This document shows positions 2,982 to 31,451 of a stretch of 64,000 bases of DNA, piece after piece. The position numbers and the translations under genes are program-made. The stretch lies in the IMG/VR virus record IMGVR_UViG_3300006045_001036, one strand, 5' to 3'. This stretch comes from a virus. Its lineage: Duplodnaviria; Caudoviricetes. Position 1 is the stretch's first letter; every line of letters begins with the position of its first letter. Under the pieces are notes generated by a model that saw only the letters and a program-made list of their open reading frames with translations, searched no databases and was not told where the DNA came from.

Positions 2982-3012
2982 CCGCCCGTCATCTCCCGAC
3001 GGGCGGTTTTTT
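2982..3012 (+). terminator. Intrinsic terminator closing the P3 unit
   Basis: CCGCCCGTC/GACGGGCGG stem followed by T6. Confidence 0.8.
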
Positions 3013-3092
3013 ATATTCTTATTTTAAATAAATGCTTTCACCACAACCCTATAAATAGTTACGGCGGTTTTTATTGTCACAACATATCGTGG

Positions 3093-3159
3093 TTGACAGA
3101 CAATCTAAAACGTGTTATAATGGTTATACAGAGGAAAGGTTTCCTCTGTATAACCATTA
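3093..3159 (+). promoter_or_regulatory. sigmaA promoter P4 overlapped by a perfect 20-bp inverted repeat
   Basis: TTGACA(3093)-17-TATAAT(3116); TAATGGTTATACAGAGGAAA-gg-TTTCCTCTGTATAACCATTA at 3118-3159. Confidence 0.75.
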
Positions 3160-10723: not shown

Positions 10724-11302
10724 TTACCCATTTTTAACCTCCACTGTTACAATAGTATCGTTGTGTACCGAGCCGTGCGGTACAAGCAGAATTCGCACCA
10801 ACTCGAACCCGAGTTTCTTACCGACACCGCCCGAGTTCCAGCCAAAACATATTACCTTGCCATTAGGCTTAACGATTCTCGCAATCTCTTTCTTCAATTT
10901 TGTGTAGAAACTCGACTGAGTTGTTTCCGAAGTGACTTTAATTCCGACACCTTTGTAGCACTCGCTAACTTGCCGAGGGGAGTAAGGCGGGTCAAAAAGT
11001 ACGCCGTCAACACTCTCATCACGGAATGTTTTGAGAAACTCCAACGCATCGAGATGAAAATCAGCCTTGAACTCAGGGTTAAGGTCGTTTGTTACGTTTG
11101 CGTACTGGTGTCCGCAGTGGTTTACAAATGGGTCAATCCACTGCGGTTTGCAGTCATACCCATATCTGCGGAGTAGGTCTTCATCGTCTTCCCCGCAGAA
11201 ACGGATTTCCTGACTTGGTAACTCTTCTTCAAGCAATTCACGAATTGGCTTTATTGAAAATGTCTGTTTATTCGGCATACACCAAATACGCTCAAATCTC
11301 AT
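10724..11302 (-). CDS. Small adenine-specific DNA methyltransferase
   Basis: WIDPF, TNDLNP, VLFDPPYSPRQ, HGSVHNDTIVTVE. Confidence 0.8.
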   Translation of the reverse strand: MRFERIWCMPNKQTFSIKPIRELLEEELPSQEIRFCGEDDEDLLRRYGYDCKPQWIDPFVNHCGHQYANVTNDLNPEFKADFHLDALEFLKTFRDESVDGVLFDPPYSPRQVSECYKGVGIKVTSETTQSSFYTKLKKEIARIVKPNGKVICFGWNSGGVGKKLGFELVRILLVPHGSVHNDTIVTVEVKNG

Positions 11303-25509: not shown

Positions 25510-26673
25510 CTAATTTTTACGGTTGTCCCACCAAAATGAAGTCGCCGCAGATTTGTTGTTAACGATATATGATTTTGCCACTCTGCGAATATACTCTTCG
25601 GCGTGAATTCTTCGCTCGTCCTCAGGAAGTTCGGGGGCAGAACACCATTCACCGAATATAACAGGGACTTCGAGGGTTCTTGCTCTGTCGCATACACGGT
25701 TTATATCATCGTTGATAATAGAAGCACCGTGACGAATATTACCATATTCGTCGGGGCAACTGGCAAAATCTCCTTGTTTGTCATGACACCAGTTATGCGG
25801 CGAATATATGTGTACCGAGAATATGAACTTACTTACTCCGTGATAGTGGGTTTCCTCGGGCTCAAGCGGCAACCGAAAACTATCTAATTGACGTGCATGA
25901 CCTTGAGCACCGTAAGGACATAACATCAAAAACCGATTTTTATTGTTGTCACCGCCTACCGCTCGTACTGTGTTAACAAAGATTTGATTCCACTCGTTAA
26001 CAATGATATAATCAGGAGTGCTTCCGTTCCAATCCCAATCTTTATCATCGTTGGCTGCTTCGTTCCAGAGCTTATTTCGACGTCTCGGTTCGTTAAAACC
26101 TTCAAAAATCACTCTGCAATCGTAATCATTGAACGCTTCGGCAATCTGACTCCAGATTTGATAAACAGCTATCTTTGCACTGTCGGGTGTGTCGAACCGA
26201 AACATAAACCCATCGTGGTGAGTGTTGAGTATAACATACATTCCTCGATTGTAAGCGAGGTCAACCACGCTTTTAATATACTCCATCCACTCTTTGTTTA
26301 TTTCGTGAGCCATTCCGTCTTTTCCACCGTTGGTATTTTCAACCATTTTGTACCATGTAACAGGAACACGGACAGCATTGAACCCCGCTTTGTGTACTTC
26401 ATCAATGAGATTTTCAATACTCGGTGTATCCTCATCCAACCACATATTAGCAATGCTGGGTATGTTAGGGTCTTTGCAATACGACGGAATTTTCTGGCTT
26501 GGCTTTTCACTGTTGTAAGCGTCAAGAGTATTCCCGATATTCCAGCCAACATTGATGTCTCCGACGATATCGAATGCTGTTTTATCCCAAAGCTCTTCAA
26601 GATTCGACCCAGAGCAGATTACGCCTTGTACAACACAAGCGTGTTTTGCCGACATTATAGCATTTCTACTCAC
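25510..26673 (-). CDS. Glycoside hydrolase family 5 (endoglucanase-like)
   Basis: GWNIGNTLDA, GFNAVRVPVTW, ILNTHHD, FEGFNEP (acid/base), SVHIY, IFGEW (nucleophile), FWWDN. Confidence 0.92.
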   Translation of the reverse strand: MSRNAIMSAKHACVVQGVICSGSNLEELWDKTAFDIVGDINVGWNIGNTLDAYNSEKPSQKIPSYCKDPNIPSIANMWLDEDTPSIENLIDEVHKAGFNAVRVPVTWYKMVENTNGGKDGMAHEINKEWMEYIKSVVDLAYNRGMYVILNTHHDGFMFRFDTPDSAKIAVYQIWSQIAEAFNDYDCRVIFEGFNEPRRRNKLWNEAANDDKDWDWNGSTPDYIIVNEWNQIFVNTVRAVGGDNNKNRFLMLCPYGAQGHARQLDSFRLPLEPEETHYHGVSKFIFSVHIYSPHNWCHDKQGDFASCPDEYGNIRHGASIINDDINRVCDRARTLEVPVIFGEWCSAPELPEDERRIHAEEYIRRVAKSYIVNNKSAATSFWWDNRKN

Positions 26674-28871: not shown

Positions 28872-28885
28872 TTTTCCTCCAATTA

Positions 28886-28916
28886 TAAAGAATCAAGGCG
28901 GTCGAAACCACCTTGA
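28886..28916 (-). terminator. Terminator closing the RNA island
   Basis: TCAAGGTGGT-TTCG-ACCGCCTTGA followed by TTCTTT on the - strand. Confidence 0.7.
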
Positions 28917-29078
28917 CCGCTATGTACTAACCCACTGTCGTCGTCAGTACTGACGACGTCAACCCTACTCTCGTTGACAACCTTTTCACCTTGTACTTCG
29001 GTTCGATGACTGTCTTGATTTTCAAGTTGAATCCACGGTTTTAGGCATACACGCTTACTCGCCGTGGCAGGGGTTAAA

Positions 29079-29199
29079 TGGCTTAGGTGGGATTCGAACC
29101 CACGACTTTCGTGTACAGCGAGCGACCTAATCCTTTCAAGGTATACATTTATAGCTCTGTCATCTACCGCACGACCCTCTACCGCTGAGGTACACAGCC
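29079..29199 (-). ncRNA. tRNA-like RNA A with a 56-nt segment in place of the anticodon loop
   Basis: CCTC-AGCGGTA-GAGG D arm, TCGTG/CACGA stem, GTGGG-TTCGAAT-CCCAC T arm, acceptor GGCTGTG/CTAAGCC with 2 mismatches. Confidence 0.7.
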
Positions 29200-29270
29200 A
29201 TCTATGTGCGAAACAAAACCAAAGCACAGCGTCTCGCACAAAAGATTACGTACAAATTAAGAAATGCTAA

Positions 29271-29600
29271 TGGAGTCGAGGGGAATCGAACCCCTGTCCA
29301 AACCCAGTTCGGAAACATCATTTATCACCGTAGTCTGTTTATCTTTAACAGACAAAGCCGTCCCGATATTCCGAGAAGTCGGGCAACACTCATGGTGAGC
29401 GACAATTTAACAGCAGTTATTACCGCTATCACGACCCGCTCGTACCGTTAACTGACGGAATTCTTTAACCGCAAGCACTTACCTCCGTCGGTGTGCTGTT
29501 TTGGATGTTGCTGCGTTTAGGCAGCGACTAATGCTCCAACAGGAGCAAAAGCGATAATCTTAGTTTGTTTAGCGTTTAAGATTTAATTGCCAGATTGAAA
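29271..29600 (-). ncRNA. ssrA: tmRNA: tag frame, pseudoknots and 3' tRNA-like half present; 5' strand not found in its normal place
   Basis: 3' end GGAC-AGGGG-TTCGATT-CCCCT-CGACTCC-A; tag AKQTKIIAFAPVGALVAA* at 29573-29517 after TTAAAC; pk2-like AGCAC/GTGCT crossed by GACGGAG/TTCCGTC. Confidence 0.85.
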
Positions 29601-29732
29601 TGGCTTAGAATCCCCGCAATACGTACCTTTCGGGAATGGACGAGCGAAACAATACCCTTGATGGTTGCCTTCTGATATCGGCTCAAACTCAGCACAATCA
29701 CGACACTTTGGTTTGTTGTTATTTGCCATCAT
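29583..29732 (-). CDS. 49-aa Cys-rich peptide
   Basis: GAAAGGA RBS; KCRDCAEF...GYC...YC. Confidence 0.55.
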   Translation of the reverse strand: MMANNNKPKCRDCAEFEPISEGNHQGYCFARPFPKGTYCGDSKPFQSGN

Positions 29733-31193: not shown

Positions 31194-31264
31194 CGGAGCG
31201 GGTGGGACTCGAACCCACGACTCTGTGCTGGTACACCCACTCTAACCGCCTGAGTTACCGCCCC
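31194..31264 (-). ncRNA. tRNA-like RNA B with shortened anticodon arm
   Basis: GGGGCGG/CCGCTCC acceptor, ACTC-AGGCGGTTA-GAGT D arm, GTGGG-TTCGAGT-CCCAC T arm; anticodon arm only GTGT-ACCA-GCAC. Confidence 0.75.
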
Positions 31265-31347: not shown

Positions 31348-31451
31348 CTGCAATGGTGGGATTCGAACCCACGTGCCTCCCAGTATCGGTCTACAGCACC
31401 ACTGGTCTGCTATAGCTGTAGTCACGCTTATAGCCTCTTGCGTACATTACA
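31348..31451 (-). ncRNA. tRNA-like RNA C with expanded anticodon/variable region
   Basis: TGTAATG/CATTGCA acceptor, CGC-AAGAGGCTATAA-GCG D arm, GTGGG-TTCGAAT-CCCAC T arm; CTACAGC/GCTGTAG stem around a 17-nt loop. Confidence 0.7.

Follow-up and report, generated by a model that had tools for sequence, protein, structure and literature searches.

Within the 64,000-nt stretch of phage DNA analyzed here (the window), the minus strand encodes a 121-nt RNA, designated RNA A (5' end at 29199, 3' end at 29079), which is probably a tRNA-derived, non-decoding tRNA mimic. Its cloverleaf shell would have been kept by selection, while the anticodon loop has been replaced by a variable filling. Such a mimic had been suggested in the first-pass annotation as one of two readings, and the proposal now finds support in a syntenic orthologue on a sister contig (L016), in which the shell is maintained with 8 compensatory pairs and the filling has been free to change.

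Detection and anatomy of RNA A

The window belongs to a large, apparently temperate, Clostridia-type phage and is part of a 219.5-kb ENA contig. The RNA A region is 100% identical in a 1350-nt JGI contig (L001), and a third contig of 10-20 kb encodes an identical product of the ORF which overlaps RNA A. All of the features originally described are present on the minus strand (Table 1): the D and T arms are canonical, 56 nt are enclosed by a 5-bp stem, and the acceptor stem has two mismatches. The acceptor helix contains the internal mismatches G5.A68 and U6.U67, the discriminator A at 29079 is followed by UUU, and the T arm proper occupies 29103-29087. Positions 8-9 are U8 and A9, position 26 is G26, and the nucleotides of the tRNA elbow and core, as read from the sequence, are all canonical (U8-A14, G15-C48, G18G19/U55C56, G26-A44, and U54-A58).

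Table 1. Coordinates of RNA A, its parts and the neighboring RNA elements in the window
Feature	Coordinates	Strand	Remarks
RNA A, whole: tRNA shell with 56-nt filling	29079..29199	-	sequence; ARAGORN -i call c[29078,29200]; orthologue L016:3000-3147
Acceptor 5' strand	29193..29199	-	pairs with 29080-29086 at 5/7 positions
Acceptor 3' strand and discriminator A	29079..29086	-	without encoded CCA; U-rich trailer next
D arm	29176..29190	-	4-bp stem, 7-nt loop with GG; stem identical in L016
Anticodon-stem 5' strand	29170..29174	-	5 bp with 29109-29113; 2/5 pairs compensatory vs L016
Filling replacing the anticodon loop	29114..29169	-	56 nt, weakly structured, without T-loop or D-loop motif
Variable loop (5 nt) and T arm	29087..29108	-	5-bp stem, canonical 7-nt T loop; 2 compensatory pairs vs second T arm of L016
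tRNA-like B	31194-31264	-	G3.U70 acceptor, shortened anticodon arm
tRNA-like C	31348-31451	-	forced ARAGORN reading also without U33
tmRNA-like gene upstream of RNA A	29268..29643	-	Rfam RF00023 36 bits, cut-off 47; tag frame 29573-29517
Intrinsic-terminator-like hairpin, 12-bp stem and T run	28891..28918	-	closes island downstream of RNA A

With introns allowed and at default stringency, ARAGORN called RNA A as a 'tRNA-Tyr(gta), 49-nt intron at 37/38', and 30 shuffled versions of the 64-kb window with their dinucleotides preserved yielded 0 calls under identical settings. The cloverleaf is thus far from what chance would give, and the call together with the empty shuffles confirms the initial observation. 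RNA A was missed by ARAGORN in its default mode and by a Rfam scan at gathering thresholds; in a sensitive scan, the Rfam tRNA model RF00005 matched its 3' half only, at 19.4 bits (cut-off 29). A motif had also been placed about 60 nt upstream, and GCATTTCTTA is indeed found there, 57-66 nt from RNA A and directly past the 3' end of the tmRNA-like gene. The 'promoter' motif TAGCATT upstream of RNA A is not enriched (10 occurrences vs 7.65 expected) and is not conserved in L016.

The additional pairings which had been proposed within the insert (GAGC/GCTC and CCTT/AAGG) are present but weak. The folding energy of the 66-nt arm formed by insert and stem, -12.8 kcal/mol, is on a par with that of shuffles (z -0.21). 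The judgment that the insert is far too short for a group I intron holds (56 nt vs ~200 nt or more), and no Rfam intron or ribozyme family was matched at E values up to 10; a hammerhead or other small ribozyme was likewise considered for the insert and dropped. Possible targets or further copies of the insert were sought by k-mers, and only one 11-mer was returned, which is about chance level, and an exon BLAST for the tRNA isotype of RNA A returned generic T-arm matches only.

The RNA island and its counterpart in a sister contig

The order of the island along the minus strand is tRNA-Gln, tRNA-Pro, tRNA-like C, tRNA-like B, bS21, a 239-aa gene, a host-like zinc-ribbon gene, a 49-codon Cys-rich ORF, the tmRNA-like gene and RNA A, after which come ~190 nt able, as read from the sequence, to form several hairpins, and then the terminator-like hairpin. 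A T stem and variable-loop core is common to A, B and C, while the tRNA-Pro and tRNA-Gln of the phage have other T stems, and on the basis of this shared core A, B and C look like paralogues. A 114-codon ORF reported by a public gene caller (28883-29227, minus strand) runs through RNA A, the hairpins and the terminator. Because it has no Pfam match and crosses both the cloverleaf and the terminator, it is regarded as spurious and is probably no gene. The zinc-ribbon gene, located upstream of the tmRNA, has a product sharing ~70% identity with a host protein common in Oscillospiraceae/Ruminococcus, and a host of this group is thereby suggested. GH5 cellulase-family genes are located just downstream of the RNA island, with one copy in the window (25510-26673) and two in the sister contig (L016:4697-6842).

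Relatives of RNA A were sought by several routes. BLASTN of an 850-nt region against the INPHARED phages gave no match, and exact or gapped patterns applied to IMG/VR, JGI metagenomes and GTDB genomes returned analogues or chance matches only (L011, L017-L020). Among the neighboring proteins, the 578-aa product had no relatives and the 171-aa product matched only itself; relatives of the 239-aa protein were without an RNA island, relatives of the 292-aa protein were without tRNAs, and the zinc-ribbon protein, being common among Oscillospiraceae hosts, was unhelpful as a search route. Only bS21 (83% identical) succeeded, leading to L016, a 7.6-kb JGI contig which holds the sole relative of RNA A found. 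The gene order in L016 is infA, tRNA-Pro, bS21, a small ORF, a 238-aa gene, a zinc-ribbon gene, 1.1 kb of non-coding sequence and a GH5 block, and no counterpart of B or C is present between infA and bS21. The 1.1-kb non-coding stretch contains an intact one-piece tmRNA at 2500-2922 and, ~80 nt further on, a 148-nt element at 3000-3147. Directly upstream of the intact tmRNA there is an odd tRNA-like sequence (L016:2407-2494), which ARAGORN calls only at lowered stringency; its acceptor has 7 bp, its anticodon stem has 5 bp and closes a loop of 8 nt, and a T arm is present.

In a MAFFT alignment, RNA A and the 148-nt element align end to end. The D arm is almost identical, its stem fully so, and conservation extends to the T arm, the variable loop, the discriminator A and the following UU. 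The acceptor strands have only the innermost pair in common, with pairs 1-4 replaced on both sides; the acceptor helix of L016 is nevertheless paired at 7/7 positions, including the pairs at which the window copy mismatches. Over the 21 pairs of the outer cloverleaf, 92.9% of the cells in the two-sequence alignment are paired. Eight of these 21 pairs have changed on both sides and still pair (4 in the acceptor, 2 in the anticodon stem, and 2 in the T stem), while control alignments in which the 3' partners were slid by 1-3 columns gave 1-2 such pairs. As the covariation rests on two sequences only, the compensation is not assignable to one lineage, and selection on the window copy may have ended recently.

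For the L016 element, ARAGORN independently reports a tRNA with a 77-nt 'intron' and the triplet AAT, as compared to GTA in the window. Thus, the shell is kept by compensation while the acceptor sequence and the triplet are not, which is the pattern of a structural tRNA mimic rather than of a tRNA with an amino-acid identity. In the first-pass annotation, a random, unconserved insertion combined with decay of the D and T arms in homologues was taken as the mark of a plain pseudogene. While the first part of this applies, as the insert is unconserved, the second does not: D arm, T arm and all four stems are kept, so that RNA A is not a plain pseudogene by this measure.

The filling of the L016 element consists of 82 nt between the anticodon-stem strands. 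The first of its elements is a second variable-loop/T-arm unit, followed by a hairpin of 9 bp with a loop of 7 nt, then by UA with another D arm, and finally by a 4-bp helix which stacks on the outer anticodon stem. All 42 pairs proposed for the element are canonical. The Rfam tRNA model matches both of its half-cores, and the Rfam YrlA model (RF02553) matches the core of T arm, hairpin and D arm with 33.2 bits (E value 2.7e-4), below the cut-off of 69. When the arms are enforced, a nested topology is predicted at -43.9 kcal/mol vs -38.6 kcal/mol for a tandem one. The favored model is therefore that of a two-headed 'tRNA-in-tRNA', in which a permuted YrlA-like inner body would be joined to the outer shell through the anticodon stems. 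The T arm of the window, in both stem and loop, is slightly closer to the first T arm of L016 than to the second, and with this alternative T-arm alignment a tandem reading of L016 is possible, with six instead of eight compensatory pairs.

No inner T arm and D arm were found in the 56-nt filling of the window, while both are found in L016. Derivation of the 56 nt from the L016 inner module by decay was considered, and a suggestive alignment was obtained, but the similarity is not significant (z 0.25 vs shuffles). Since it stays at the level of shuffles, only a positional equivalence of the two fillings is claimed. The poor structure of the 56-nt filling makes RNA A a reduced, one-headed form in comparison to the two-headed L016 element.

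RNA A is located 68 nt from the tmRNA-like gene, whose tag is convincing and ends with VAA. This gene is without a 5' acceptor strand, a D-loop analogue and the 5' strand of P2, and its homology to the tmRNA of L016 extends only from ~29605 to the 3' end. In L016, the tmRNA scores 84.4 bits, is called by ARAGORN at default settings, and encodes the tag AKSAKIIAFAPPVGALAAA. About 100 nt of the tmRNA 5' end (the acceptor strand, the D-loop analogue, the P2 strand and most of PK1) have been replaced in the window. As this comparison of sequences shows, the tmRNA of the window phage is 5'-truncated, and with a clearly damaged tmRNA next to RNA A the island is partly decaying. The replacement sequence carries the 49-codon Cys-rich ORF (29732-29583), which has a ribosome-binding site and no family match.

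Weighing of the alternative explanations

The other reading offered at first pass was that of an intron-bearing tRNA-Tyr(GUA), from which the 49 nt after position 37 would be spliced out, in the manner proposed for the 'enigmatic introns' in tRNAs of Lak megaphages, to give a product decoding UAY. The output of ARAGORN with the -i option is in accord with this, and a Lak phage tRNA-Tyr(GTA) has a 93-nt insert at the same 37/38 position (PMC6784885). Folding of RNA A with the cloverleaf enforced (-30.2 kcal/mol vs -32.7 kcal/mol unconstrained) gives an arm comprising a helix, a 2-nt bulge, a 4-bp helix with two G.U pairs, an 8-nt bulge, and another 4-bp helix. The arrangement loosely resembles a bulge-helix-bulge, with the ARAGORN splice sites inside the bulges, but the bulges are of 2 and 8 nt instead of the 3 and 3 nt which flank the 4-bp helix in that motif. 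The loop does begin with the Tyr-like CGGTAGA, as had been pointed out; position 33, however, is G rather than U. U33 is nearly universal in elongator tRNAs. Each of the 18 single contiguous excisions from the 66-nt arm which leave 17 nt gives G33, and an anticodon loop of 7 nt having U33 together with a purine at position 37 is unobtainable in RNA A, either directly or after removal of one segment. Furthermore, bacterial tRNA-Tyr belongs to class II, whereas the variable loop of RNA A has 5 nt, and the L016 orthologue, with its AAT triplet and an almost wholly replaced and unrelated acceptor sequence, gives no stable amino-acid identity. The intronless combination of D arm and anticodon stem occurs in 0 of 185,579 species genomes, and Pfam scans of 34 window products revealed no splicing endonuclease, RtcB, or RNA ligase. 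Lacking both a stable triplet and an excision which restores U33, the spliced tRNA-Tyr was rejected as improbable. Still more improbable is a reading of RNA A as the 5' domain of a permuted, two-piece tmRNA, in which the 7-nt stretch 29178-29172 would pair with the tmRNA 3' acceptor strand. The Rfam model RF04321 gives 25 bits here (E value 0.038 in 6 kb and 0.4 in 64 kb), an ARAGORN run of lowered stringency arrives at this pairing as well, and 6 of the 7 positions, among them a G3.U70, do pair. Both scores, however, are under threshold (RF04321 has a cut-off of 47), and 33 other 7-mers within ~5.5 kb pair equally well. The stretch sits inside the D stem and anticodon stem of RNA A, so that the pairing would destroy the 21-bp cloverleaf, and no partner for P2 was found, duplex folding of P2 being uninformative. 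The permuted tmRNA is effectively refuted by L016, in which a one-piece tmRNA has its own 5' end and the homologue of RNA A is still located downstream.

A serious rival to a working mimic, unlikely as we consider it to be, is that RNA A is a recently dead relic of an L016-like two-headed mimic, which would have lost the inner module and would now be decaying as a pseudogene alongside the tmRNA. It is the truncation of this adjoining tmRNA, with the 49-codon ORF in place of ~100 nt of its 5' end, which keeps the possibility of a recent relic alive. The two acceptor mismatches of RNA A at pairs intact in L016, a filling which folds no better than shuffles, and the fact that other relatives were not found in IMG/VR, JGI metagenomes, GTDB genomes or INPHARED are consistent with it as well. 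On the other hand, the D and T arms and all of the nucleotides involved in tertiary contacts are intact, and the damage is found only where the shell does not need the sequence. Moreover, this T arm has been retained in the paralogues B and C, whose anticodon regions have been remodeled differently. The identity of the sequence in three independent assemblies is uninformative either way. We thus retain the non-decoding mimic with a selected shell as the probable explanation of RNA A.

Possible role, analogues in other phages and relation to known systems

As a working mimic, RNA A would be produced from its position between the tmRNA remnant and the putative terminator (28918-28891) in the tRNA/bS21/tmRNA island, and would be expected to fold into an L shape. 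RNase P and RNase Z could release it from the transcript, and it might receive CCA in the same way as a CCA-less Firmicute tRNA. RNase P, RNase Z, the CCA-adding enzyme, TruB and TrmA recognize the acceptor/T-arm minihelix and the elbow, and the anticodon is not needed. Unable to read codons, the RNA might engage tRNA-binding proteins through its elbow and its acceptor end, either as a decoy or as an adaptor. A scaffold, or a decoy for tRNA-targeting defenses, had been put forward as a candidate role in the first-pass annotation.

Several phages contain RNAs which are analogous to parts of this system. A 22-nt stretch over the D arm of RNA A is identical in the Ralstonia jumbo phage phiRSL1 and in two relatives from IMG/VR, where it lies in permuted YrlA-like RNAs (30-32 bits) with a closed acceptor hairpin that covaries between the relatives. 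In phiRSL1 (L003:300-650 and 993-1116; NC_010811.2:188801-189600), the space between ORF270, ORF269 and ORF268 holds unannotated RNAs. They comprise two tandem permuted YrlA-like tRNA mimics and a tRNA-like sequence of standard order (41 bits) with a 62-nt insert, which ARAGORN reads as Thr(ggt) with the insert at 31/32. No counterpart of this insert-bearing tRNA-like was found in two relatives, and a TROVE gene was not found in phiRSL1 or in one relative, both of which have the YrlA-like RNAs. A 170.6-kb IMG/VR contig (L008) has two tRNA-likes with 43-44-nt inserts at position 33 (L008:4170-4288 and 10787-10904) within a 19-tRNA array; by eye, the inserts are similar to one another, with a hairpin and an A-rich tail which both have in common, and they are reminiscent of a repeated module or a small mobile insert. 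In a 122.6-kb IMG/VR contig (L024:1784-2040, minus strand), a YrlA-like permuted mimic (24.1 bits, E value 0.11) has the same D-arm sequence as RNA A. Directly upstream of it, a shell of standard order with a 9-bp acceptor and a ~62-nt center was read by eye; neither ARAGORN nor Rfam called this shell.

Two building blocks, one a shell of standard order filled by ~56-62 nt and the other a permuted YrlA-like module carrying the same D-arm sequence, thus occur side by side in phiRSL1 and in the 122-kb IMG/VR phage, and nested in L016. This occurrence of the same blocks in both arrangements would suggest one functional system which engages the host tRNA-binding machinery by one or two elbows. It is possible, and we propose it only tentatively, that RNA A and its L016 orthologue represent a lineage of an undescribed class of phage RNA, i.e., a tRNA shell with a swappable slot on the anticodon side, the window copy being a working one-headed version. 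The slot would, in some phages, be filled by a permuted YrlA-like second tRNA head. Because the window copy is reduced and possibly decaying, it is a supporting example and not the best exemplar of such a class; RNA A is a variant, and only a modest example, of a known kind of RNA which is little understood.

The 'odd tRNAs' of large phages are skipped by annotation pipelines or labeled as pseudo-tRNAs or intron-containing tRNAs. The present case, with its syntenic orthologue, indicates that a tRNA shell can be selected while the anticodon region is freely replaced, which is the signature of a mimic and neither of a decoding tRNA nor of a gene that is spliced. The case further connects the enigmatic tRNA introns of megaphages, the YrlA-like permuted mimics and the phage tmRNA loci, which are usually treated apart. 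If such RNAs titrate or recruit factors binding the elbow or the acceptor, they would constitute a new layer of phage control over host translation, and the candidate factors would include RNase P, the CCA-adding enzyme, modification enzymes, and tRNA-directed defense nucleases.

Among the known systems, the intron-containing tRNA-Tyr of archaea and eukaryotes shares with RNA A the class-I body, GUA at positions 34-36 and an insert after position 37. RNA A differs from it in G33, in the irregular bulges, in the triplet which is not conserved in the orthologue, and in its setting in a bacterial phage, where the 34 window products scanned included no splicing endonuclease. The tRNA-like domain of tmRNA resembles RNA A in being a shell without an anticodon whose anticodon stem is continued by other RNA. 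In contrast to this domain, RNA A has a true D arm, no G3.U70 and no tag frame, and it is a separate cloverleaf in both phages.

The Lak megaphages are reported to have tRNAs with 'enigmatic introns', one of them in the tRNA-Tyr(GTA) (Devoto et al. 2019, PMC6784885). The insert of this tRNA contains a T arm, and another Lak insert is said to encode a possible tRNA (PMC6784885). Like these insert-bearing tRNAs, RNA A has a shell of standard order in which tens of bases are inserted at the anticodon loop, and it is located in a large phage inside a cluster of tRNA and translation genes. The Lak and L016 inserts, however, contain tRNA arms, while the insert of RNA A is without recognizable inner arms. 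In phiRSL1 and L008, ARAGORN finds loops with U33, whereas no canonical loop is restorable in RNA A, and RNA A has no sequence similarity to the insert-bearing tRNAs of Lak, phiRSL1 or L008.

RNA A is also similar to the Y RNAs YrlA and Yrn1 (RF02553; Chen et al. 2014, PMC4201824), which are tRNA-derived and non-decoding and have kept the D/T elbow. Unlike YrlA, RNA A has open acceptor ends, is without a Ro-binding stem and gives no match to RF02553; a TROVE/Rsr gene was not seen among the window products scanned. The matches to RF02553 outside RNA A, in L016 and the other phages, are of 24-33 bits, far under the cut-off of 69. Nevertheless, the order of elements in YrlA, i.e., T arm, closed acceptor hairpin and D arm, is that of the L016 inner module, and Yrn1 has the standard arm order, as does RNA A.
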